Both the position numbers and the translations under genes were made by a program. A model generated the notes under the pieces. It saw only the letters and a program-made list of their open reading frames with translations, was not told the origin of the DNA and ran no database searches. DNA of 64,000 nt. Origin: Eubacteriales bacterium (GTDB lineage Bacteria; Bacillota; Clostridia; Oscillospirales; CAG-272). The stretch is from contig JAZQXT010000047.1 in NCBI GenBank assembly GCA_045633005.1, positions 33,476 to 97,475 on the forward strand. The letters are read 5' to 3'. Shown here one piece after another: positions 3,657-24,664 of the stretch (position 1 is its first letter; every line of letters starts with the position of its first letter).

Positions 3657-4088
3657 ATGGAAAACAAAGGAAATAAATTCGGCAAATTGCTTCTTTCGCT
3701 TACAGCTTGCACGGCTTTCGTCGGAGCTATCGTTGCCGCAGGTAAAGTGATTTTCTCCAAGCGCAAGGACAAAGACGTTCAAAGCAGTAGCGATGAAAGC
3801 GGCACGAACACGCTCGTCGCCATTTGCGTACTGCTCGTGGGTGTCGGAACTCTTATCGCGGGCATCGCCGTAGCGCTTCGCTCCATCCGTAAGGTCAGGG
3901 GCGGATACATCATCGACCTGTTTGACAGGGATGAATACGACGTTATCTCGCCCGAGGAGGAGGATAACTTCGAGGAGCTTATACGCAGTGAGCTTCGCCC
4001 CAGCGGTGACGACGATTGCGCCGCGCCCAAGCTTCGCGACGATATAGTTCCCGTTGACGAGGACGCGACTGAGGACAACTACAACTGA
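3657..4088 (+). CDS. Hypothetical membrane protein
   Basis: Two hydrophobic segments and acidic C-terminus; AAGGA RBS before ATG 3657. Confidence 0.7.
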   Translation: MENKGNKFGKLLLSLTACTAFVGAIVAAGKVIFSKRKDKDVQSSSDESGTNTLVAICVLLVGVGTLIAGIAVALRSIRKVRGGYIIDLFDRDEYDVISPEEEDNFEELIRSELRPSGDDDCAAPKLRDDIVPVDEDATEDNYN

Positions 4089-4133: not shown

Positions 4134-4145
4134 CTCATTAAAGAA

Positions 4146-4171
4146 CGGCACACTCCCGAGGGAGTGCGCCG
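4146..4171 (-). terminator. Terminator of the phage-like operon
   Basis: CGGCGCACTCCC-TC-GGGAGTGTGCCG followed by TTCTTT on the minus strand, just after the stop at 4185. Confidence 0.65.
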
Positions 4172-4184
4172 CGTAAAGCGTCCT

Positions 4185-5435
4185 TTAATAAGGATATTTA
4201 TTTACTATGCCGTGAAGCTGTGCGGGGATCTCCGTTCCGATGATGCAAATAGCGTCGCACCATCTGTGAAAGAGCTTTTCGTAAAGCGATGCGTCATCGT
4301 CAAGGATGAGCATTGCCGCCGTATAATTCACAGCCGCGCTGACAAAACGGTCGCAAAGAGGAAATTCGCTGTCAAGCGATATTTCCATAACGTCGTAGGG
4401 CGGCTGGTCGGGAAGCCCGTACGCTTTGCGGTAGAGCTGATCAAGCCTTGAAGCCTCGCTAACGAGCGCGGCAAAAATGTAGGGGGCGCGCTCGGTATAG
4501 TCCTCCATTATGGAATCCATATACGCCTTTTTTGCCGCCTCGCTCCTTTCGGGGAAAAGCTCCACGCCCGAGGTCTCGGTTATCTTTACGGTCGATATCT
4601 CCGCCTCGACGCCGCTTTCGGCGCTCGTATCGCTTTCATTCGAGGACGACGTGGTCGTACTGCGCTCACTCTCGCCCGCCGTGCTTGCCGTCTTTTCCAG
4701 CGTGTTGGTTTTGGTGCTTTCGCCAGACGAAACCGTATCCTTGGTGTGGGCAGAGGTCTCTTCACTCTCATCGTGAGTCTCTATGCTCTCACTATTTGTA
4801 TCCGTGAAGTTTTCCGTAACGGTAACCAGCCTGTCATCCGTTTTTTCAACGTCCGCCTCGGAAGTGCCCGTCGTATTAATAGTTGCGCTTACGTCCTCGG
4901 CAATAGTGGTAATAAGCCTTTCGGTAGTAGCGGTAACGTTTTCCGCCGAGGTAGGGATCTCGCTTATGTAAAGCTCGTCGGTATTTTCCGCATCCTTGCC
5001 TCGCGTTTCCGTGGTTTTCTCGCTCGTTTTACCGGTTTTCGATTCCTCAATTGTGGTTTTATCGGTGCTGGAGCTGGTATGCGAGCGTGTATCGTTCTCC
5101 GTGTCGCTCTTTGTTCCGTCTGCCGTTGAGCTGCGAGTTTTCTCGCCGCTGACGTTTTCCGTAGAGCTTGTCGTCGAGCTTACGTTGTTCGTCGAGCTTT
5201 CGTTATTGCTCTCGCTCGTCGTTTCGTTAGCGGTAACCGTCTCGTTTTCGGAGCCGCTTATGCTCTGCGTTTTGGTTTCATTGCGGGTTTCCGTCTTGGT
5301 CTCGGTGACTTTCGTGGTCTTTGCCGCAAGACTCGCCGCCGCCGTCGTCGCCCTGACCATAGAATCGGTATCGGCGGCTATCTTGGCTCTGATGACCAGA
5401 CTTACGGCTCTGTCGAATATTCGGCTGACTAACAT
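4185..5435 (-). CDS. Putative head-completion/adaptor protein with ~250-aa Ser/Thr/Glu-rich insert
   Basis: Directly downstream of the capsid gene, GGGAGG RBS; helical-looking termini around a T/S/E-rich region. Confidence 0.55.
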   Translation of the reverse strand: MLVSRIFDRAVSLVIRAKIAADTDSMVRATTAAASLAAKTTKVTETKTETRNETKTQSISGSENETVTANETTSESNNESSTNNVSSTTSSTENVSGEKTRSSTADGTKSDTENDTRSHTSSSTDKTTIEESKTGKTSEKTTETRGKDAENTDELYISEIPTSAENVTATTERLITTIAEDVSATINTTGTSEADVEKTDDRLVTVTENFTDTNSESIETHDESEETSAHTKDTVSSGESTKTNTLEKTASTAGESERSTTTSSSNESDTSAESGVEAEISTVKITETSGVELFPERSEAAKKAYMDSIMEDYTERAPYIFAALVSEASRLDQLYRKAYGLPDQPPYDVMEISLDSEFPLCDRFVSAAVNYTAAMLILDDDASLYEKLFHRWCDAICIIGTEIPAQLHGIVNKYPY

Positions 5436-5452
5436 CTATTCCTCCCGAATAA

Positions 5453-6271
5453 TCAGTTTATGGTGAGGTCGAGAAGTACCATCTCGGAGGGGTAAATTAC
5501 CTTTGCGCCGTAGAGGTGCAGACCCTTGACGGCATCCGCAAATCGCTTTTCGGGGCGGTACGCATCCACTTCGCTGAGCTGCTCGGCAAAGGCGATGGCA
5601 CGCTTGGTGCGTGCAAGGCACTTGTGTGCGCCGTCCGCTACGGCGACGTTGTTGGAAACGTAGATCTTACAGCCCGCAACGTTGCCGATACAACCCGTTT
5701 CAAGGGTGCTGTCGCTGTTGCTGATAGCGATCTTGGACTTGAGGATGAGCGCCGCAACTGCGGGGGAGACCTCGACAACGATATCGGCGGGATCGCTTAC
5801 GTTATTCTGAAGGAGCTTTGTACGAGCATCGATGATGTGCTCGATGATGTTATCAACGGTAGCCGCCTGCTCGGTAATAACGGAGCCAGCCTCGCCAAAG
5901 AGCGAGAAAACGTACTTATCCGCCTCGTTAGCGAGTGCGGACGCGGCGACCTTCATAGCGCCCGTCATAAGCTTGGGGGAGGACTGAACTCTGTCGATGT
6001 CGTCGATCTGGAAGTTGAACGCCTTCGCCTGATCGATAACGAGAGTCTTGGAAAAATCGGTAAGCTCCTCTGCAAGAAGCTCGAAATCCGTGTTTTTGTT
6101 GTAATCGAAAACCGTAACGTCGGTAAGTCCGCAGATCTTTACTCTGTCGCCCTTGCCCTTGATCTCGCCCTCGAAATCGCGGTTGCAGTTTGCTACCGCT
6201 ACGTACTGATTGTCAAGTGCGGTGAGAAGATTTTCGCTCCATACGGTAGAGATAAAATTAGTAATTGCCAT
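5453..6271 (-). CDS. Phage major capsid protein (P22 coat-like, HK97 fold)
   Basis: MAITNFISTVWSENLL, NRDFEGEI..KGDRVKI, LVIDQAKAFNFQIDDID, FADAVKGLHLYGAKV; follows scaffold. Confidence 0.85.
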   Translation of the reverse strand: MAITNFISTVWSENLLTALDNQYVAVANCNRDFEGEIKGKGDRVKICGLTDVTVFDYNKNTDFELLAEELTDFSKTLVIDQAKAFNFQIDDIDRVQSSPKLMTGAMKVAASALANEADKYVFSLFGEAGSVITEQAATVDNIIEHIIDARTKLLQNNVSDPADIVVEVSPAVAALILKSKIAISNSDSTLETGCIGNVAGCKIYVSNNVAVADGAHKCLARTKRAIAFAEQLSEVDAYRPEKRFADAVKGLHLYGAKVIYPSEMVLLDLTIN

Positions 6272-6309
6272 TGTTTTTTTCCTTTCTTTTTGTGGGCTTT
6301 GCCCTTTTT

Positions 6310-6834
6310 TTATTTCCAGCGGCGCATAGATTCCATAATGCGCCCGTAGTTTTCGCGCACCTCACGGCGCGACATTCCCCTGACCTCGTCAGGAGTGAAA
6401 AGACCGTCGTCGACGGTGCTTATTTTGCCGACCGAGGTTTTCTCAGCCGACCTTCTTGCCGCCTCTGCACGCTTTGCCCTGACCTCGCGCCGACGCATTT
6501 CAAGCGCGTAAGCGGCGGCAGGCGGCACGCCCTGCCTTACTGCCTCGTTGAAGCTGTCGGGCATGGAGCTGAGCTGTGCCGACGGATAAAGGTCCATAAG
6601 CTCTGCGTACCCCTCGGCAAATCTCTCTGCCTCGGCGCGAAGCCTTTCGACCTCACAGCGAAGTGCTTTAAGCTCCTCCATCTCGGCGCTGAAATCACTT
6701 GTCACCGCTTCCTCATCGGGTGCGGCTTCTTGTGCTACCTCTTCCTCGACCTCTTCGATTTCAAACGGAATTTCTTCGATCTCCTCGGTGGACTCTTCGG
6801 TGAGCACAAGCTCCTCTACTATCTCATCAAGCAT
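6310..6834 (-). CDS. Putative capsid scaffolding protein
   Basis: Acidic N-terminus, coiled coil, C-terminal FTPDEVRGMS..EVRENY..IMESMRRW; between portal and capsid; start 6834 with AGGAGG overlapping the portal stop. Confidence 0.7.
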   Translation of the reverse strand: MLDEIVEELVLTEESTEEIEEIPFEIEEVEEEVAQEAAPDEEAVTSDFSAEMEELKALRCEVERLRAEAERFAEGYAELMDLYPSAQLSSMPDSFNEAVRQGVPPAAAYALEMRRREVRAKRAEAARRSAEKTSVGKISTVDDGLFTPDEVRGMSRREVRENYGRIMESMRRWK

Positions 6835-8374
6835 CTTCGCCCTCCTTTTCTCTTGCCGCAAGCAAGCCGTATCTGTCGGGCACAAGCCCGTCGGGGAGAC
6901 GTTCAAGATACTCGCGAAGGGAAATATGCCCCTCTTTCAAAAGATTGTCGAGTATTGTCTGCGTTCCCGACACCGAGAAGCGCGAGGAATCCGAAACGTC
7001 GATCTTCGCGTGGAGCATTGCACCGCGAAGCAGATCCGTTCTTATTTTTTCAGCTCCGTTTTTCGTGTGCAAAAGGCTGCCGTCAAGGCAATAGCCGCAG
7101 GTCATATCCGCCCAGATGTTCGCCATCTGCTCAAGGCAGATATTAAGCTCGGAACGCACGCGCTCAAGTGCCTGCATCGAGCTTTCGCGAAGCGCAAGAA
7201 TTGCACTCGTGTTGTTGGGGTCAACGTTTCCGAGCGCCGCCTCCGTCGCGCCCGCAAGGTCCTTGGTCATAGTGACCGCCTTTTCGATAAGCTCAAGATA
7301 TCCGTCCTCAAGCGCGCCCGTACCCACGACCTGCACCGCATCGGAAATGTTACCGCCGCCAACTGCGGCGATCGCCTCGCCGACCTGATTTGTCCATTCG
7401 GGGATCCTCGTGCGGTCGTAGATGACCTTTGAAAACGCCGTATCCGTCATATGCTTCATCACCATTGCAAACGCGCGGTTGATGTATTTCTGATTTGCTA
7501 TCATTCCGCTTACCGCGGAATTGCCGTGGAAGCAATTTTTTGCACTGCTCCACGAAAATTTTGCAAGCGGATAAAGCTTGCACGGCGTTACGCTGCGGCG
7601 GATAACGCAGTTTTTGGTGGATTTTTCAAACACCACGAAGCCGTTTTCCTTCCAGAACTTGATAAGGTAGGTAACGGGCGCGTCCTCCGGCTCGTAGTCG
7701 TATTCAACGGCGGCGAAATCGCCCGCCATCGAGTCCACGGCATCCTCGCGAGTATCGGGGGTGATCTTCATCACGCTCTCTCGCGACGCGCCGTTGGCAA
7801 GAGCCTCGGCGCGAAGATCTGCAAGACGTGCCTTGCCCGAAATAATAACGTGCGACTGCGACTGAATATCGGGGTTATTTACGTCAGCGGGAAAGACGTT
7901 TACGTTGTCTATCGCACCCGTAAATATTTCACCGCGCCACACGCCGCACCCGTCCGCATCGGCATCCCAGCCGCAGTACACGATACCGTCACCCGTGAGC
8001 GCCGCATCGGTCAAAAGACGGTAGACAAGGGCTTGGAGCTTGTCGCGCTCCCACCTGTACGCCGCGTTTTCGGTAAGCATCCTTACGCCGTCGGCTATTG
8101 CCGCCGCCTCGGATGCAGACTCGGAAAACGGTAGATTTTCATCGGTATACGTTATCCTTATGTCCCCGACGGCGGCGGTGGAAATAAGGTTGTCGGTTAT
8201 GCGGCGAATAACGTTGAATACGGGACGGGGAAGGTCGCCGCTGCCACCCCGCCATTGATCTCCGCGATAAAACCTTTCGTTTTCGCGAACGGTTTCGTAA
8301 AGACCGATCTTTTGCTTATATTTACGGCCCGCCTCATACTGACGCCAAGCCTTTGATAAGCTGTTCTTGTTCAT
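6827..8374 (-). CDS. Phage portal protein (P22-like)
   Basis: NERFYRGDQW, RPVFNVIRR, DAALTGDG, NTSAILAL motifs; follows terminase. Confidence 0.8.
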   Translation of the reverse strand: MNKNSLSKAWRQYEAGRKYKQKIGLYETVRENERFYRGDQWRGGSGDLPRPVFNVIRRITDNLISTAAVGDIRITYTDENLPFSESASEAAAIADGVRMLTENAAYRWERDKLQALVYRLLTDAALTGDGIVYCGWDADADGCGVWRGEIFTGAIDNVNVFPADVNNPDIQSQSHVIISGKARLADLRAEALANGASRESVMKITPDTREDAVDSMAGDFAAVEYDYEPEDAPVTYLIKFWKENGFVVFEKSTKNCVIRRSVTPCKLYPLAKFSWSSAKNCFHGNSAVSGMIANQKYINRAFAMVMKHMTDTAFSKVIYDRTRIPEWTNQVGEAIAAVGGGNISDAVQVVGTGALEDGYLELIEKAVTMTKDLAGATEAALGNVDPNNTSAILALRESSMQALERVRSELNICLEQMANIWADMTCGYCLDGSLLHTKNGAEKIRTDLLRGAMLHAKIDVSDSSRFSVSGTQTILDNLLKEGHISLREYLERLPDGLVPDRYGLLAAREKEGEDA

Positions 8375-8435
8375 TTTTCACCTTCTGTTTTCAGATTTTT
8401 TGCGAAGGACTACTGCACAGACGAAGTTTGTCGGT

Positions 8436-9758
8436 TTAGCCGAAAATGTAGTCCTCCGCAGAGCTTTTTCCAAAGCGGAAGCCGCGCGCATTTTGCAGAT
8501 CGTCGGGCGGCTGAGCGCGACTCATAAGCGCATAGCGCACAGCTTCGGGAGAATGCGTAAAGCGGTGCGGCTCACCCGCCGCGTCCTCGGGGCGATTTTT
8601 GTCGAAAAGAAGCGCAGGTATCGAGCTTATCAGCTCCTTGCAATCGCGGCTTATATGAAGCCTCACCTCGCCCTTCTCGTTCTCGGCAAGGTATTCCCTG
8701 AAAAGCCGCCAGCCCGCCACGCGTCTGTCGTCCGCGGGGCGCATAGGTGGCATACCGTATGTGTTTTGCATCACCTCAAAACCGCTTTTGCCCGTATCCT
8801 GCCGTCTGTTCCAAAGGTCGGGCGAGGCTACGGCGTATTCCACGTTCTCGCCTCGGCAAAGCTCGCTTACCGCCCTTGCCGCCTCGGACAGCGTAAGCCC
8901 CGAGCGGCAATACTCGCGCTTTATCCAAACACAGCCGTCTCGGTCAAATCCGCAGATATACGCCGCAAGCATGTCAAAGCCGTAGTCAAACGCCGCTATC
9001 GTTATCGGCGTCCGTGGGATAACGTTTGGCTCGCACACGTGGCGTTCCTCGTCAAATTCCGAGAAGAACTGACCTTCGAAAACGTCCCATTTGCCGTAGA
9101 GCCACGCATCGCGCAGTCGCGGCGGTAGGCTCTCAAGCCGTGAGACGTATTCGGGGTCGGCGGCGGTCAGACTTGCGTTGTCAAAAACCGTCGCGGGAAT
9201 AAAGGCGTAGTCCTCGGCGCGCTCGCCTGCTCGGTAGTCGCGGTCGATAAAGAGCCGCTTTACCCAGCCGTGCCCGATGCCGCCGGGATTGCAGGTAAGA
9301 TACATCCTTCGCGGCATATCCGTCGCTCCGCGAAGGCAAGCCTTAAAGATGGAAAACTGATATTCGCTAAGCTGAGTCGCCTCGTCGATAGCGATAACGT
9401 CGTATTCCTGACCTTGATAGCGCAGAGTATCGCGCTCCGAGGAGCAATAACCGAGGAAGAGCTTACTGCCGTTTTGAAAGAGGACGCATTTGTCGCGCTC
9501 GGAGTAGCTTACCGCATCGCCAAGCTCGGCAAGAAGCCTGTAGAGGTGATTGGAGCGAAGCTCGGGCAAGCTTCGGCGCACTAAAAGCGCCTTAAGCCCG
9601 CCGTAGCGCAAGCACATAAGCACCACCTTGCGCCTGAGCGCCCACGACTTTCCGCCGCCGCGCGCTCCGCCGTACGCCGTAAATTTTGCACGCGAGGCAA
9701 AAAACTCCCTTTGCCTTTCGGCAGGTACACCGCTTACTCTTATTTCCGCCTCTGCCAT
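8436..9758 (-). CDS. terL: Phage terminase large subunit
   Basis: Walker A YGGARGGGKS, Walker B IAIDEATQ, TCNPGGIGHGWVK, nuclease FDYG. Confidence 0.93.
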   Translation of the reverse strand: MAEAEIRVSGVPAERQREFFASRAKFTAYGGARGGGKSWALRRKVVLMCLRYGGLKALLVRRSLPELRSNHLYRLLAELGDAVSYSERDKCVLFQNGSKLFLGYCSSERDTLRYQGQEYDVIAIDEATQLSEYQFSIFKACLRGATDMPRRMYLTCNPGGIGHGWVKRLFIDRDYRAGERAEDYAFIPATVFDNASLTAADPEYVSRLESLPPRLRDAWLYGKWDVFEGQFFSEFDEERHVCEPNVIPRTPITIAAFDYGFDMLAAYICGFDRDGCVWIKREYCRSGLTLSEAARAVSELCRGENVEYAVASPDLWNRRQDTGKSGFEVMQNTYGMPPMRPADDRRVAGWRLFREYLAENEKGEVRLHISRDCKELISSIPALLFDKNRPEDAAGEPHRFTHSPEAVRYALMSRAQPPDDLQNARGFRFGKSSAEDYIFG

Positions 9759-10136
9759 TTACTCGCCGTCGGCATACGGGTCGTGTTCAAAAACGAGCCG
9801 CACACCCGCCGCCTCCTCCTCCCTTTCGGGCGCTCGCTCGCCTACGTAGCCAAGCCTTTGCTTCAAGTAGACCGACAGCACCGAGGAGGACATTTTTGAG
9901 TTTATCGCCTCATCCTCAAGAGCCGCGCATATCTCGCCGTAAAGCGACGGACGGCTCTCCCGAAGGCTTGCTATATCGCTCATGCTTCCGCCGAAATATC
10001 GGCAAAAGCCCGCAAGATTAGGAATTCTTTCCTTTTCCGCGCAATAGTCGATATACGAGGCAAAAAGGTGTGACAGCTCGTCCTTTTCTATGCTTTCGGC
10101 AAGGAGATTTTTTTCTTTTTGGTTTGCCGTGTTCAT
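9759..10136 (-). CDS. terS: Terminase small subunit (P22 gp3-like DNA-packaging protein)
   Basis: IPNLAGFCRYFG and VYLKQRLGY signatures; stop abuts terL start; start codon uncertain. Confidence 0.7.
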   Translation of the reverse strand: MNTANQKEKNLLAESIEKDELSHLFASYIDYCAEKERIPNLAGFCRYFGGSMSDIASLRESRPSLYGEICAALEDEAINSKMSSSVLSVYLKQRLGYVGERAPEREEEAAGVRLVFEHDPYADGE

Positions 10137-10316
10137 CCTTTTTTCAGTCGTGCCGATCCTCTCTTTCCCGTCTGTGCAATGGAATTTTATCGCGCTTCGG
10201 GGTCTCAAAGGCTGTAGAGTGTCGCCCACAGTCTCAAAAGCTCATAAAAAAACGGCAAAGCTATTGAAAAAACGCGTATAATCGGATATAATTTATAAAA
10301 ACGAAGGAGGTCGGAT

Positions 10317-19416: not shown

Positions 19417-19791
19417 TCAATACCGCTCGTTATACCTGAGCTTGCGCCACAGAGCGCGCGCCTCACGCAGACGGCGGTAGAGCGTCCGCTCGTCGCAGTG
19501 AAGCTCGCCCGCAACGCAAATGACGCGATATGTAAGCTCGTTTGGCATAAGCTTCATTTCGGGCGCGAAGAAATACACCCTGCGCGCCGCCTCCGCCGTA
19601 TCGCACTTGCCCGCGGCTTCAAGAAAGCGCAAGGTCTCCCACACGGCAAAAAGGTCAAGGACTACGCCCTCCGAGCCCGCCCTTTTTACGCGCCGCAAAA
19701 GCGAGAGCGGCTCTTTTTCCTTATCGAGTCCGAGCCGCGCGAATCTCCTGAACGCGCGTATCTCCTCCTCTTTTCTTCTGTCTACCGACAT
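19417..19791 (-). CDS. RinA/ArpU-like transcriptional regulator (C-terminal HTH)
   Basis: 124 aa; VAGELHCDERTLYRRLREA sigma-region-4-like HTH; GGAGGTG RBS. Confidence 0.6.
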   Translation of the reverse strand: MSVDRRKEEEIRAFRRFARLGLDKEKEPLSLLRRVKRAGSEGVVLDLFAVWETLRFLEAAGKCDTAEAARRVYFFAPEMKLMPNELTYRVICVAGELHCDERTLYRRLREARALWRKLRYNERY

Positions 19792-19806
19792 TTTCACCTC
19801 CAAAAC

Positions 19807-19851
19807 AGAACATTTGTTCTATATTATAGCATAAAAAAAGAAGCTTGTCAA
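19807..19851 (-). promoter_or_regulatory. Sigma-A promoter with LexA (SOS) box over the predicted TSS
   Basis: TTGACA(19851-19846)-17nt-TATAAT(19828-19823), then AGAAC-AAAT-GTTCT (19820-19807) matching GAAC-N4-GTTC. Confidence 0.85.
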
Positions 19852-19967: not shown

Positions 19968-22112
19968 TTATTGATTTTGTTCGGGTTCTGCGGGTTTAGC
20001 GCTGATGTGGGTAAGGTATCCGGGCTTGCCGTCCTTACCGTCAACTATAGCATATTCTTTATCGGTTTTGGTGGAATCAAATGTCGTATTGTTGCCACCC
20101 ACCAAGCTATTGCATCTGGCAAACATTTCTCTGGACGAATTTTCGTAATTTGTTCCAATGTTGGTTTCTGGGATATTCGACATATCCCAATTATCGCCTA
20201 CATAGATCTTGGTCAATTTACAAGGGCGAGTTGTTACGTTAGTATCCTGCGCAAACATCCTTAGCGCCAGCAACACGTTTCTCGTATCAAACGACGAAAG
20301 ATCCAATTCTTTCAGGCTGGAGCATCTGTAAAACATTTCATACATAGTGTTGACATTGCTCGTATCCCAAGTGTTCAGACCTATGATCTCCTCAAGCAAA
20401 CCGCAGTTTTCAAACACCTGCGCCATATTAACTACCTTTTGGGTGTTAAAGCTGGAAAGGTCGATTGTTTTAAGAACAGTACAATCATTAAACATACCGT
20501 CAATGTTCTCAAGGCTCGCGGTGTTCCAACCGTCAAAATTTATTTTTTCTAACCTGTAACAATCGGCAAACATATGGTACATAGTAGTAACCTTGTCTAC
20601 CTCAAGTCCGCTAAGATCCAGTTCTTTCAGATAACCGCATCCGTAGAACATAGACTGCATATTGGTAAGGCTGAGAGTTTCCCAATTGCTAACGTTAATA
20701 GATAGCAAGCCTTGGTCGCCTTTGTTGGCTTTTGCAGCAGAAATAAAGCTTTGAAAAGTGGTGACCTTACGAACATCCCAATTGTCAACTGCCAACGTGG
20801 TAAGTCCCCTGCATATGCTGAACGTTCGTTCCATGTCCGTTACGTTTCCAACGTTCCAAGAACCAACAGCAAGCTCTGTAAGACTACAGCAATTATAAAA
20901 CGTACGGTTCATAGTATTAACGTTACTAACGTCCCATTCCGATACATCCAGATCAACGAGCGCTGAACAGTTATTGAACATACTCGCCATCGTTTCCGTG
21001 CGGCTCAACTTCAAATTAGTTGTACCAACCTTTTTCAAAGCAGTCATATTCATAAACAGCTCGTTGCTGTTCTTAGGCGTATATATCGCACTGTCAGCAA
21101 GGACGTAGATATCGTAGTTTGCGGCGTTGTCGGCATTGGGAAGATAGTAAGTATAAACTACCGCATCCTGCTCGACGCTCGTGAGAGTGCCCGCGTAGCC
21201 TTCGACCTTGTCAGCGTAGTCTTTGTTAAAACCAAACGTTATGTTTGCCACCTTGTCGGTGATAAGAGCATCGGCATTTCCATTAAGATTATGAAGCGCA
21301 GTTTTCAAGTCAATACCAACCACAAGCGTGAGGTTTGCGAAGGGGAAATCACTACCAAATCCCTCATCAAGCGCAGTTTCGGGATCTTTAAAGCCCGTGG
21401 ACTGGATAGCCTGAGTCCTTACAAGAACCTTATAATCGTTTCCAAAAGCATCTACCTCTTCGTTGGTAGCGTAGGAATCAAGCGCGATCTGCGAAAGGCT
21501 TATTTCCGTAACAGCTTCAGGCACTAACTCTATCTGATAGGTAGCCTTTGCGATAAAATACGTTTCGCCGTTGATTTCGGCAAGGCGCGGCTCCCACTCC
21601 CATTTCCACTGTTTTTCATCGTCATTCAGATTTATGTGTATCTTATCTTGGAACTCGTTAAAATCCGTATAGCTTCCCGCCTCAAACGCGAAGAAAACTC
21701 GGACGTATGCACCGTAGTCGCCGTTATTTCTTACGAAAACCATCTTATCAACTTCGTTGTTGATCTTCGCAGGGTCCCAAATGGGAGAGGTATAACCCGC
21801 CTTGATAGCATTTCCTTCGTTATCGTGGTCCCACTTAACGTGAGCGTTATCCTGCTCGCTAAAGGAGTAGTCAAACTCGCCATTGATGACTGCGGGAATC
21901 AGGGGCTTGTAATCCTCAAAATTCTTAACTATCTTATCAGCATCCTTCTGCTCGGTATCCACACGCTCATACTCCAGCAGCTCAATATCGACCTTGCCAA
22001 CGGTCATTATGTTTTCAGCTGACGCATCATCCTTAAGATACGCGATAGTGCCGAGGACGGATGCTACTGCAATCAGCGCAAGCGCTAAAACCCATGCTAA
22101 TATTTTTTTCAT
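19968..22112 (-). CDS. BspA/DUF285-type LRR surface protein with SipW-class signal peptide (copy 1)
   Basis: GTIAYLKD signal; repeated WDVSNVNTM..MF-type LRR units. Confidence 0.85.
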   Translation of the reverse strand: MKKILAWVLALALIAVASVLGTIAYLKDDASAENIMTVGKVDIELLEYERVDTEQKDADKIVKNFEDYKPLIPAVINGEFDYSFSEQDNAHVKWDHDNEGNAIKAGYTSPIWDPAKINNEVDKMVFVRNNGDYGAYVRVFFAFEAGSYTDFNEFQDKIHINLNDDEKQWKWEWEPRLAEINGETYFIAKATYQIELVPEAVTEISLSQIALDSYATNEEVDAFGNDYKVLVRTQAIQSTGFKDPETALDEGFGSDFPFANLTLVVGIDLKTALHNLNGNADALITDKVANITFGFNKDYADKVEGYAGTLTSVEQDAVVYTYYLPNADNAANYDIYVLADSAIYTPKNSNELFMNMTALKKVGTTNLKLSRTETMASMFNNCSALVDLDVSEWDVSNVNTMNRTFYNCCSLTELAVGSWNVGNVTDMERTFSICRGLTTLAVDNWDVRKVTTFQSFISAAKANKGDQGLLSINVSNWETLSLTNMQSMFYGCGYLKELDLSGLEVDKVTTMYHMFADCYRLEKINFDGWNTASLENIDGMFNDCTVLKTIDLSSFNTQKVVNMAQVFENCGLLEEIIGLNTWDTSNVNTMYEMFYRCSSLKELDLSSFDTRNVLLALRMFAQDTNVTTRPCKLTKIYVGDNWDMSNIPETNIGTNYENSSREMFARCNSLVGGNNTTFDSTKTDKEYAIVDGKDGKPGYLTHISAKPAEPEQNQ

Positions 22113-22160
22113 AACTTTTTCCTTTGGTTCATTTTATATTAAGCGATAAATATTTCTTCA

Positions 22161-22183
22161 CCCCCGACCGTTTCGGTCGGGGG
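22161..22183 (-). terminator. Terminator hairpin between the LRR paralogs
   Basis: CCCCCGACCG-TTT-CGGTCGGGGG, same stem as 19935-19959. Confidence 0.65.
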
Positions 22184-22192
22184 CAAAAATGA

Positions 22193-24388
22193 TTATTGAT
22201 TCTGATTCTGTTCGGGGTCTGCGGTTTTAGCGCTGATGTGGGTAAAGTATCCGGGCACGGCGGGGGTGTCGCCGATAGCGGGCACGTCGATGCGGGCGTA
22301 TTCTTTATTGGTCTTTTCGGAATCAAATACCGTACCTGCGCCACCTACCAAGCTGGTGCAATTAGTAAATAAACCAGTTGAATCTCCGGGAGGGATACCC
22401 TTCCAACCGTCGCCGACGTAAACGGTCTTGAGGTTCGGGCACTTATAGAATGCATAATTCGTAGCATGCACCTGTTCGGAGTTCATTCCGCTCAGGTTGA
22501 CCTCCACCAAGTTCGTACAATTGGTAAACATATACGCCAAGGATACGGTTTTACCGGGGGCGGGATTAAAGCCGCGCAGATCAAGCTTTGTCAAGTTTAC
22601 GCAGCCCGAGAACATTCCAAAAAATGCTTTAGCCGCGGATTGAGATATATCATATGCGCTTGAGGTAACCCACTTGGAGAAGTCAAGATTAGCTATTTTC
22701 ATTTCATAAACATTATCTACGCCCGCATACGCATCGTATCCTGCAAGGAAACGCTCAAACGTCTCAACCTTGCGCACGTCCCAATTGCTTATATCCAAAT
22801 ATTCAAGTTCCAAGCAACCACCGAACATCGTTTTCATATTGGTTACGTTGCTCGTATCCCACTTGGAAACATCCAAATTGTTAATAACGTAGTCGTTTGC
22901 GAACATTCCATACATATCGGTGACGGCGGAGGTGTTCCAGTTCGAAACGTCTACTGTCTCCAGCGCATAGCAGTTACTAAAGGTCATGCGAAGATTTTGA
23001 ACGTTACTGATGTTCCACTTGCTTACGTCCAAATTATTTATCGCATTACACTTGTTGAAGGTTCTGTAAAGCAAAGTAACCTTACTAACGTCCCAGTTTG
23101 TAAGATTCAAGGTCTTAAGGCAATTGCAATCCTCAAACGTTTGCTGCAAGTTTGTTACATTGGAAGTATCCCAATTTGTAGTATCCATAGCCTGCATACG
23201 GTAGCACCTATAGAACATACGGTACATATTGGTAGTCTTGCTTACGTCCAAGTTTTCTGTATTAACGTTGATCAGCCAATCCATAGTCGCAAAAAGGTTG
23301 CTACTGTCAGCAGGGGTATAAATAGGACCGTCGGCGAGGACGTAAAGGTCGTACATCGGTACTTCCTTTACTACGTTACCGTCCGCATCCGTTTCCGTTC
23401 TGATGTCGGGGACGTAGTAGGTCTTGACCTGCGACTCCTGATCAACGTTGGTGTGCACGCCCTCGTAGCCATTAACGATAGAGAGATAGTCCTTGTTTTT
23501 GCCAAATGTTACGCTATCGACCGAGGAGGTTATCTTGGTTCCATTAGCATCGCCGTTCAGATAATGCAGCGCGGTATAAAGGTTTACACCTTCAATGTAA
23601 ATGTTGTCAAACGGGAAATCTTCGCCAAAGCCTTCGCTCAAAGCCTCGTCGGGAGTCTTGAAGCCCGCGGACTGAATGCCCTGCGCGTTTACGAAGACCT
23701 CGTAGGTATCGCCAAATGCCGCCACCTGTTCGTTGGTTGCAGTGGAATCAAGCGCGATCTGCGAAAGAGTTATATCGGTAAAGTCGCCGGGCAACAGCTC
23801 TTTTTTATAAGTAGCATTTGCGATGAAATACTTTCCGCCTTGGGAATTGGTGGCAAGAACCTTCTCCCATTCCCACTCCCAATCACCTGTTTCGTTCAGG
23901 TTCAGGTGGATCATTTTACGGAATTCATCAAAATCGGTGAACGCGCCCGCCTCAAACGCAAAATAGATGCGAACGTACGCGCCGTAATCGCCCTTATTTT
24001 TAAGGAAGACCATCTTATCAACTTCGTTGTTGATCTTCGCAGGGTCCCAGATGGGCGAGGTATAGCCGTCATCGTCGTTCTGCTGCTGCCACTTAACGGC
24101 ATCCTGCGTCCAATCGACGTAAGTATCGCCGGGAGTGTAATCAAAGCCTTTTTCGATAACGGCGGGGAGCAAGGGCTTGTTATCGTGGAACTCCTGCACC
24201 TTTGCATCCGCGTCCTTAGTCTCGGTATCGATACGCTCGTACTCGAGCAGTTCGATGTCAACGTTACCGATGGTCATAACGTTAGTCTCGGAGTCCGTGT
24301 CCGTAAGGTACGCGATAGTTGCGGCAATGGAAATGAGAATGGTAAGAACCACAGCAACAACACCAAGAAGTATCTTTCTCTTTTTCAT
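22193..24388 (-). CDS. BspA/DUF285-type LRR surface protein with SipW-class signal peptide (copy 2)
   Basis: MKKRKILLG...ATIAYLTDTD; WDTSNVTNM repeats; start reassigned to 24388. Confidence 0.85.
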   Translation of the reverse strand: MKKRKILLGVVAVVLTILISIAATIAYLTDTDSETNVMTIGNVDIELLEYERIDTETKDADAKVQEFHDNKPLLPAVIEKGFDYTPGDTYVDWTQDAVKWQQQNDDDGYTSPIWDPAKINNEVDKMVFLKNKGDYGAYVRIYFAFEAGAFTDFDEFRKMIHLNLNETGDWEWEWEKVLATNSQGGKYFIANATYKKELLPGDFTDITLSQIALDSTATNEQVAAFGDTYEVFVNAQGIQSAGFKTPDEALSEGFGEDFPFDNIYIEGVNLYTALHYLNGDANGTKITSSVDSVTFGKNKDYLSIVNGYEGVHTNVDQESQVKTYYVPDIRTETDADGNVVKEVPMYDLYVLADGPIYTPADSSNLFATMDWLINVNTENLDVSKTTNMYRMFYRCYRMQAMDTTNWDTSNVTNLQQTFEDCNCLKTLNLTNWDVSKVTLLYRTFNKCNAINNLDVSKWNISNVQNLRMTFSNCYALETVDVSNWNTSAVTDMYGMFANDYVINNLDVSKWDTSNVTNMKTMFGGCLELEYLDISNWDVRKVETFERFLAGYDAYAGVDNVYEMKIANLDFSKWVTSSAYDISQSAAKAFFGMFSGCVNLTKLDLRGFNPAPGKTVSLAYMFTNCTNLVEVNLSGMNSEQVHATNYAFYKCPNLKTVYVGDGWKGIPPGDSTGLFTNCTSLVGGAGTVFDSEKTNKEYARIDVPAIGDTPAVPGYFTHISAKTADPEQNQNQ

Positions 24389-24438
24389 GATCTTATTCCT
24401 TTCAGAATATTTATAGCGGTTTATCCAATGCGATAAAA

Positions 24439-24664
24439 ACATAATTCGCATTATGTTGCACAGGATACACCTATACAGATAAATTTTAACATGTAAATTC
24501 TAAAAAGTCAACAGTTCTTCATAAAAAACGGCACAAAAACAACACCAATGATACCGATTTTTTCATTGGCTTTGTTTTTGCGCCCTTTTTTGGCAGATAT
24601 TAGTAGAGTCGTTGGCTATGTAGAAAATAATCTTTCCCTAAATGCAACATAATGCGAATTATGT
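24439..24664. promoter_or_regulatory. Invertible promoter segment bounded by 22-bp inverted repeats
   Basis: ACATAATTCGCATTATGTTGCA (24439-24460) and its exact reverse complement (24643-24664); internal TTGACT-17-TAAAAT promoter faces the LRR gene. Confidence 0.85.

Follow-up and report, generated by a model that had tools for sequence, protein, structure and literature searches.

A six-gene operon of phage head and packaging genes lies in a 64,000-nucleotide stretch (hereafter the window) of contig JAZQXT010000047.1 from the Eubacteriales bacterium assembly GCA_045633005.1 (Clostridia; Oscillospirales; CAG-272), and is one of three loci of a real and domesticated system resembling a gene transfer agent (GTA). 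The genes are intact, have descended with the host and are under purifying selection; they are co-distributed with two loci on another contig of the same genome (C7), and the system carries LexA boxes and common TGAGAC repeats. We consider it probable, if by no means certain, that the operon is the head and packaging locus of a domesticated short-tailed phage, making GTA-like, DNA-filled particles that are released by lysis after DNA damage. An initial annotation made from the window alone had proposed such an interpretation; domestication, vertical inheritance, purifying selection and a split, GTA-like layout are all borne out, but the system is not the first GTA of Clostridia, and the small head that had been envisaged does not follow. 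The main interest of the system lies in a testable regulon, repeated loss of a nozzle gene with extension of the adaptor, and the apparent capture of gyrB.

Head and packaging operon

The operon comprises six stop-free open reading frames (ORFs) on the minus strand, from 10136 down to 4185 of the window (Table 1), and ends in a hairpin that was the best of 14 terminator-like sites, a total not above that of shuffled sequences (12.2); six intact, tightly coupled genes with their own terminator had been reported at the outset. Spacing to the flanking genes is 96 and 180 bp, as annotated (about 100-180 bp), and a 143-aa membrane ORF (3657-4088) lies between the operon and prfB. The host-like base composition noted earlier is also upheld: the GC content of the operon (0.546) is close to that of its flanks (0.537 and 0.527) and not to that of an AT-rich island at 20-44 kb (0.41), and GC content at third codon positions (GC3; 0.63-0.67) is prfB-like. 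There is no tRNA gene in the window, and no att-like repeat pair surrounds the operon among the 20 largest of the 56 direct-repeat families in the window. The statement that integrase, att, repressor, replication, lysis and tail genes are missing holds within the operon, but repressor, activator and lysis genes are present on contig C7.

The six proposed gene identities differ in their footing: TerL, portal and capsid have family matches, the terS-like and scaffold-like genes are named by position, and the adaptor by non-significant fold matches. TerL, the sole terminase detected in the 1.87-Mb source assembly (G000), retains Walker A and B motifs, motif III and the acidic residues of the nuclease, all conserved in 25 of 25 aligned genomes. 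The closest portals from cultured phages are those of Bacillus phages Page, Pony and Palmer (27-28% identity). The scaffold-like protein has no family match in the searched libraries, and its gene is present in all 29 loci examined (27 of 29 for the terS-like gene). For the capsid, the closest solved structure is PDB 8E16 (Che8 gp6, 273 aa; E 1e-34), and the closest homologs from cultured phages are those of Che8, D6E and phiCP39-O (40-43.5% identity). The NCBIfam library includes a model for the N4-gp56 capsid, which the window capsid does not match at E up to 0.1. It had been suggested that the 272-aa capsid protein may form a small head; as an inference from length this was rejected, as the 273-aa protein of Che8 builds a T=9 capsid in the published description (bioRxiv 2022.09.09.507160), and the nearest cultured phages have genomes of 36-52 kb.

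The sequencing runs that contain the window stretch are bovine or other animal gut metagenomes. Metatranscriptome contigs from four runs of two studies lie on the operon, on all six genes in run X20 and as pieces at 95-99% in X17; these data are contigs only, DNA carry-over is possible and the flanks are covered too, and they were not used as evidence.

Table 1. Coordinates of the head operon and its associated features (window positions unless a contig is given).
Feature	Position	Strand	Remarks
Terminator-like hairpin, operon end	4145-4172	-	12-bp stem, 8 G-C pairs, T-rich tail
Head-tail adaptor-like, 416 aa	4185-5435	-	130-aa helical core split by insertion
Thr/Ser/Glu-rich adaptor insertion	4566-5330	-	about residues 36-290
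Major capsid, HK97-fold, P22-coat/Che8 type, 272 aa	5453-6271	-	phrog_267 (2e-49), PF25209
Scaffold-like, 174 aa	6310-6834	-	named by position and acidic helical make-up
P22-like portal, 515 aa	6827-8374	-	PF16510 (1e-11), phrog_156
terL-portal junction, 61 bp, nozzle-like gene missing	8375-8435		most relatives carry a 575-600 aa gene here
terL, large terminase, 440 aa	8436-9758	-	phrog_979 (3e-45), phrog_2, PF03237, PF04466
terS-like, 125 aa	9759-10136	-	named by position only
Predicted activator-dependent late promoter	10184-10236	-	TGAGAC at 10231-10236 and 10202-10207; TAAAAT -10 at 10184-10189
Lysis operon	C7:5347-8025		fibre-like (189 aa), leucine-rich-repeat protein, 71-aa ORF, two holin-like proteins, Amidase_3/SPOR endolysin
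Regulatory cassette	C7:9971-11523		HTH-S24 repressor divergent from Cys-rich ORF and 144-aa activator

Distribution, inheritance and selection

Of 38 genus genomes, 29 carry the head operon, which is missing throughout a sister clade of seven; the capsid gene is present in 27 of 36 genus relatives and the adaptor gene in 28 of 37 (13 of 14 genomes at least 90% complete). The operon is single-copy except in G034, where capsid and adaptor are duplicated in opposite orientation on contig C15 (L041 and L052) and the second copy ends at the contig edge, by duplication or misassembly. Nine genus genomes have no head operon. Seven of these also lack the activator and the fibre-like gene described below and form one clade (27-genome gyrB tree, support 0.996), and the other two, 74% and 82% complete, keep both genes.

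In trees of 27 genomes built with FastTree, the operon and rpoB proteins have 18 of 24 splits in common, with no conflict among splits supported at 0.95 or above, and comparison with the rpoB nucleotide tree gives 17 of 24 common splits, one conflict at that support and a Mantel r of 0.97; the operon thus tracks the host, as vertical inheritance had been proposed to require. Ratios of nonsynonymous to synonymous substitution (dN/dS; pairwise Nei-Gojobori, own script) are 0.05-0.08 for terL, 0.05-0.06 for the portal and 0.01-0.05 for the capsid across all six pairs of the nozzle-less clade to which the window belongs, against 0.04-0.08 for rpoB and 0.21-0.35 for the neighbouring sfp in the same clade. 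The same pairs give 0.10-0.18 for the terS-like and 0.16-0.25 for the scaffold-like gene, and core-gene values are 0.03-0.17 in eight pairs of relatives with seven-gene operons. No pseudogenes were found among the head-operon genes read in the 29 loci, and the operon, C7:3000-18000 and the contiguous cassettes contain no gene for replication, integration or excision (assembly 84% complete).

The best matches in IMG/VR (60-64%) are eight contigs of 5-10 kb that carry cassette genes, and one IMG/VR contig is at zero distance from a locus in a metagenome-assembled genome (MAG). On a cassette tree that omits five duplicate loci and loci without near-full terL or portal, the IMG/VR contigs that were placed and the cellular cassettes share a single clade (1.00) from which large phage contigs are separate; adaptor lengths were unreadable by script for many rows. 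In four loci labelled Flemingiibacterium (L257, L258, L259 and L262) the seven genes are reordered as terS, terL, capsid, adaptor, nozzle, portal and scaffold.

These data bear on whether the operon might be a cryptic prophage remnant or a capsid-forming satellite, decaying or still mobile. Every part is phage-derived, nozzle and repressor have been lost in some lineages, and an integrase gene adjoins the operon in G014, all of which such a remnant or satellite would account for; yet the absence of pseudogenes in 29 loci, strong purifying selection, tree congruence, host-like GC3, the lack of an att-like pair or tRNA gene, and an identity of at most 43.5% to cultured phages make this very improbable. 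Neither patchy distribution nor neutral evolution nor pseudogenes, each named at the outset as grounds for abandoning the GTA interpretation, was found, and dN/dS had been proposed as a check on it. The operon is domesticated, vertically inherited and under purifying selection, and is not a decaying prophage.

Lysis and regulatory loci on contig C7

A search of the source genome with 4539 ORFs taken from loci of related phages and cassettes led to contig C7, which carries a lysis operon and a regulatory cassette separated by an ABC-F gene (Table 1); the search for orphan tail and lysis clusters recommended in the initial annotation thus recovered an operon of fibre-like, holin and amidase genes. 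The amidase matches phrog_435 (1e-34), one small ORF matches a holin family (3e-5), and the fibre-like protein, which we take to resemble BppU, has weak matches to tail-fibre PHROGs. In the regulatory cassette, the activator matches phrog_248 and phrog_36, and the cI-like repressor combines a helix-turn-helix (HTH) domain with Peptidase_S24.

The activator is encoded in 31 of the 38 genus genomes, including all 29 that carry the head operon, and the fibre-like gene gives 22 strong and four weak matches among the 38. The activator tree is correlated with both the host tree (r 0.95) and the head tree (r 0.96) across 25 genomes. Activator, repressor, holins, amidase and fibre-like gene have dN/dS of 0.02-0.29, and purifying selection on C7 is weakest for the leucine-rich-repeat (LRR) and 71-aa genes (0.24-0.52). 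In the source genome the activator gene and the head operon are on different contigs; G023 has them about 6.6 kb apart, and in L237 the activator gene follows the operon at a distance of 2 kb. An unsplit cassette of about 11 kb is found between host genes in L226, L228 and L233 and contains repressor, Cys-rich (Zn-finger) ORF, terS, terL, portal, scaffold, capsid, adaptor, nozzle-like gene, holins, amidase and fibre-like gene; no activator homolog was detected in these three cassettes.

Several variations surround these genes. In most genus loci the ORF after the activator encodes a membrane-like protein of 61 aa (L266:11591-11776) that hardly varies (dN/dS 0-0.08). In L295 and L296 (G013 and G017) the activator match runs over stop codons near the end of the alignment, reflecting shorter C-termini or early decay. 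Another clade of the genus (L304, L308, L311 and L318) has a shorter fibre-like gene, of about 145 aa, with an M23-type peptidase gene after it, and the two holin-like genes are at a separate locus with the same palindrome as that described below.

The inventory also speaks to a PBSX-like killing particle that packages host DNA incidentally. The control logic is similar, comprising a repressor, a sigma-like activator, a late operon and SOS induction (the last predicted here), according to the available description of PBSX (PMC8347963); however, no tail tube, sheath or tape-measure gene is present in the operon or contiguous cassette, and none was seen in the genome regions matched by the 4539 ORFs (by eye, not all annotated), so that we give this explanation hardly any credence.

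Promoters, LexA boxes and gyrB

The predicted late promoter of the head operon (Table 1) has no sigma-70 -35 box. Across genus loci, TGAGAC repeats occur at about 10-bp steps upstream of terS, before a -10 box without a -35 box; at least two copies of GAGAC within 150 bp upstream of terS are present in 22 of 27 genus loci, versus 0.45% of 2000 random windows. A search for a strict tandem TGAGAC pattern returned no match in five genomes and is uninformative, because it was empty even in two carriers. The same repeats are upstream of the terminase genes of L190, a 24.7-kb viral contig.

When the genome was scanned with a model trained on the promoters of relatives, the null maximum (22.1 in three 0.9-Mb simulations) was surpassed at four sites only, namely C78:1284 (31.1), the promoters of the head (28.5) and lysis (28.2) operons, and C40:803 (25.9). 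C40:803 is the gyrB promoter, which is a near-copy of the lysis promoter, including the TGACAG-N4-CTGTCA palindrome that occurs only twice in the genome; the gyrB site is present in all five genomes of the clade and in none of 22 others. C78:1284 is a DnaA-box cluster between gyrB and gyrA, and a cluster flanked by TGAGAC repeats was found in five of five genomes (G000, G007, G014, G024 and G033); no DnaA cluster follows gyrB in ten other genomes checked, which says nothing on their origins. The cluster itself (L327:1191-1500 on G000:C78), with TGAGAC repeats on both sides, is likely a replication origin in an unusual place. Among the 20 palindrome sites in the genus, 15 precede fibre-like or holin genes, three precede gyrB and two precede unrelated sigma-like genes; none is present in the seven element-free genomes.

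From these motifs we infer that the head and lysis operons are co-regulated, and gyrB appears to have been placed under the same control in the clade of the window; together, the sites at gyrB and the DnaA boxes point to host chromosome functions coming under a phage regulator. Because two of the four top sites are gyrB and the DnaA-box cluster, ranking fourth and first respectively, the TGAGAC motif could instead belong to a host regulator: the repeats and the palindrome would be bound by a chromosome or stationary-phase regulator, with the capsid operon wired into a gyrB/origin regulon. We regard this as improbable, as the palindrome mostly precedes fibre-like and holin genes and is absent where the element is absent, the gyrB site is restricted to one clade, and the repeats also precede the terminase genes of a viral contig.

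Control by DNA damage is suggested by LexA-type boxes. One is upstream of lexA and two are at the activator cassette, of which one overlies the activator start codon; a strict box is present in 20 of 30 activator loci, and the remaining ten keep the repressor. Activator binding and induction by damage are predictions; since a concrete switch is proposed, induction can be forced and tested directly.

Perfect LexA-type boxes were also observed elsewhere. A 123-aa ORF at 19417-19819 of the window (minus strand), 9 kb from the operon, has one upstream (19808-19819) and weak PHROG matches (excisionase, E 0.14), and is possibly an SOS-controlled, phage-derived gene. Another is upstream of an ORF resembling a tyrosine recombinase at G000:C55:29850 (minus strand; by eye, first 60 residues). 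At 19968-24451, where the AT-rich island of the window starts, there are tandem surface-like repeat proteins of 714 and 752 aa.

Nozzle loss and the lengthened adaptor

The window lineage is derived: it has lost a nozzle-like gene and extended its adaptor, with a parallel in a second nozzle-less lineage. By profile search, the nozzle-like gene is present in 24 of the 38 genus genomes, i.e., 24 of the 29 head carriers, and four of the five nozzle-less carriers are 92-94% complete. The 61-bp terL-portal junction of the window is the same in three other genomes. Relocation of the gene elsewhere in the source genome was rejected, as tblastn with 30 homologs and the profile gave a best E of 0.016 over a 61-residue stretch; the profile that matched 24 genus genomes had no match in five genus genomes or in five further genomes. 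The name itself derives from weak PHROG matches of distant members, to phrog_3287 and, weakly, to the head-closure protein Hc3; against solved structures the profile gave a single match, 26fb_K ('structural protein'; 9e-6), which is not decisive. In wider scans the nozzle-like gene is missing from 10 of 62 full loci (three of these ten being the clade of the window, and two ending close to the adaptor), and on the cassette tree the losses are independent.

The adaptor core is 33-48% identical to relatives of 129-147 aa. A short relative was modelled with a predicted local distance difference test (pLDDT) score of 84, and its top nine fold matches are phage portal/tail or adaptor chains, including Sf6 gp7, although none is significant (Foldseek, best E 0.94). 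The window adaptor has about 285 extra residues after the first helix. The insertion is about 40% Thr and Ser and is without indels in six full-length sequences (66-78% identity); it has a single central Pro and mirror-symmetric conservation (r 0.74), and its dN/dS (0.12-0.28) is above that of the adaptor core. A period-2 pattern is present in its first arm and absent from the second, and a side-chain volume test on the first arm gave p 0.07. An AlphaFold2 monomer left the insertion without secondary structure at a pLDDT of about 30, a fold search with that model gave non-significant adaptor matches only, and a four-copy model of residues 36-285 scored 0.00 and is uninformative. In the ESM Atlas the best scores were 0.87 (below the 0.9 mark), the nearest named family being SU10_adaptor (0.84), a lead only. 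The sequence pattern is reminiscent of the phi29 gp11 hairpin described below, and we offer a long beta-hairpin, assembling into a tube, as a hypothesis for the insertion, one that the low-confidence AlphaFold2 model does not bear out. A separate nozzle-less clade (L218, L220, L221 and L227) has about 66 similar residues at the same adaptor site, the nozzle-less lineages G011, L222 and L207 have an adaptor without an extension, and no extension was found in any nozzle-bearing locus read. Repeated nozzle loss with adaptor extension shows a domesticated virion structure that is still evolving.

With the nozzle-like gene gone, DNA delivery is less assured in the lineage of the window than in its seven-gene relatives. 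The main rival to the explanation that we favour shares its domestication and damage induction and dispenses with delivery: nozzle-less particles, as filled or leaky heads from a suicidal minority of cells, would serve as extracellular DNA, decoys or adhesive particles, the Thr/Ser-rich insertion being a disordered, possibly glycosylated brush. The genome-wide absence of a detectable nozzle-like gene, the unstructured, Thr- and Ser-rich insertion in the monomer model and its dN/dS above that of the core accord with this proposal, and delivery is not shown for the Faecalibacterium prausnitzii system FpGTA either in its available description (PMC12946183). Exact length and mirror-symmetric conservation would nonetheless be odd for a disordered linker, the fibre-like and LRR genes are kept, and the constraint on terminase and portal equals that in seven-gene relatives; we consider non-delivery possible, though rather doubtful.

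Proposed mechanism

Under the explanation that we favour, RecA would stimulate cleavage of both LexA and the cI-like S24 repressor and so free the 144-aa activator, which would bind the 10-bp-spaced TGAGAC repeats in the manner of Ltr proteins and turn on the head and lysis operons and, in the clade of the window, probably also gyrB. Scaffold, portal and capsid would build a prohead, to be filled by the terminase in headfuls; the DNA would be that of the host, as the element does not carry its own replicon. An adaptor ring would close the portal, with the long insertion possibly replacing the lost nozzle, and the two holin-like proteins and the amidase would lyse the producer cell. Delivery of DNA by particles of nozzle-less lineages is the weakest step of this explanation.

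A number of points weigh against it. Particle production, packaging and transfer are predictions from gene content. The nozzle-like gene was not found by profile in carriers G000, G007, G014 and G024 (the clade of the window) or in G011, and no ejection or needle protein was identified, which leaves particle sealing and delivery unexplained. The terS-like protein has no family match in the searched libraries. Flanking genes differ across the genus, and in G014, one of four clade genomes, an integrase gene directly follows the operon terminator (L033:10316-11140). The repressor adjoins the activator as a divergent cI-like gene in only 15 of 30 activator loci, the strict LexA box is confined to the 20 mentioned above, and the LexA pattern is unenriched genome-wide (24 matches versus 95 for a reversed control). 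Two of the four top TGAGAC sites are at gyrB and the DnaA-box cluster, and the lysis promoter is without the promoter-proximal repeat of the head promoter and has the palindrome that the latter lacks. Finally, the assembly is 84% complete. As to the G014 locus itself, the integrase gene and a 690-aa ORF occupy L033:10316-13733, between the operon and the prfB-side ORF, in that relative only.

A bolder version of events joins the nozzle and gyrB findings: a rumen-lineage podovirus would have dropped its nozzle and built a 24-stranded beta-barrel delivery tube from its adaptor, arriving by convergence at a collar like that of phi29, with an independent start on the same path in a second lineage; its activator would have captured the gyrase promoter and DnaA-box region, so that induction amplifies and relaxes the chromosome for packaging. 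We think this unlikely; if true, the system would be a GTA whose tail is of a new architecture and which has control over the host replication origin.

Comparison with known systems

Several features expected of a GTA were found: host-encoded vertical inheritance and purifying selection; no replication, integration or excision genes of its own, apart from the integrase downstream of the operon in G014; and functions spread over several loci, as judged by co-distribution, co-phylogeny and a common promoter motif, from which co-regulation is deduced. A GTA would also be expected to package random host DNA, in pieces too short for its own genes, and to pass it to recipients, the latter being in doubt here given the missing nozzle-like gene. 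Cultured relatives (Page, Pony, Palmer, Che8, D6E and phiCP39-O) are full phages of 36-52 kb, whereas the window operon is without replication or integration genes. Capsid-forming phage satellites are described as having an integrase, att sites and a replication module (bioRxiv 2026.07.08.737213), and at the operon there is no integrase, att-like pair or replication module. The same preprint, in the part available, lists unvalidated mouse-gut Clostridia GTA candidates, with those of Coprocola and QXXE01 among them; one candidate combines an activator and terminases with capsid, holin and endolysin, and kinship with the family in the window is possible.

PBSX of Bacillus subtilis has a long killing tail. 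It is encoded at one 33-kb chromosomal locus, is SOS-induced and packages host DNA, as described in PMC8347963; the window system resembles it in the control logic set out above, but is podovirus-type, split and without long-tail genes. The lower collar of phi29 (gp11), in the published account (PMC6542822), has a 156-residue hairpin, of which 12 copies, each of two antiparallel strands, form a 24-strand tube. In gp11 and the window adaptor alike, helical regions at the two termini enclose a long insertion, but no sequence or fold match between the two was found.

The regulatory arrangement is closest to that of the Ltr late activators of Gram-positive phages (ArpU, RinA and LtrA-C), described as binding repeats upstream of terS (PMC3753634). 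As there, a small activator with a C-terminal HTH-like region is paired with direct repeats upstream of terS (here in 22 of 27 loci), and the cI control of Ltr activators may have a counterpart in the divergent cI-like gene of half of the activator loci. In contrast to the phage arrangement in that description, in which the activator gene is just upstream of the repeats and terS, the activator here is on another contig, LexA boxes are at the activator, and the repeats recur at the lysis genes and gyrB. The literature searched, mostly outside subscription journals, contains no description of the regulon of this family or of a GTA activator acting on gyrase.

The initial annotation had supposed Clostridia to be without a characterised GTA; FpGTA (proteins RCH50844-RCH50852) has been published, with electron microscopy, proteomics and about 9 kb of packaged DNA in podovirus-like particles of about 40 nm (PMC12946183). 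The available text of that study reports GTA-like packaging to be common in gut Clostridia, assigns genes for Faecalibacterium only, and describes two operons and no regulator; the 10.5 kb of operon I hold ten ORFs, which include a capsid gene of the N4-gp56 family and a tail nozzle (PMC12946183). By that published description and annotation, the two are alike in their Clostridia host, podovirus type and lack of replication genes, in an operon of TerS-like, TerL, portal, scaffold and capsid genes, and in a separate operon with BppU-like fibre, holin and endolysin (operon II of FpGTA; the C7 lysis operon here). They differ in that the window operon packs only six genes into 6 kb, encodes a P22-coat/Che8-type capsid without an N4-gp56 match, and has no nozzle. 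We do not file the window system as FpGTA because of this different capsid family and absent nozzle. It is instead a second, differently built GTA candidate of gut Clostridia with a concrete switch, comprising an activator, its predicted repeats, LexA boxes and a lysis operon; if its particles transfer DNA, it would allow genes to move among uncultured Clostridia of the ruminant gut.

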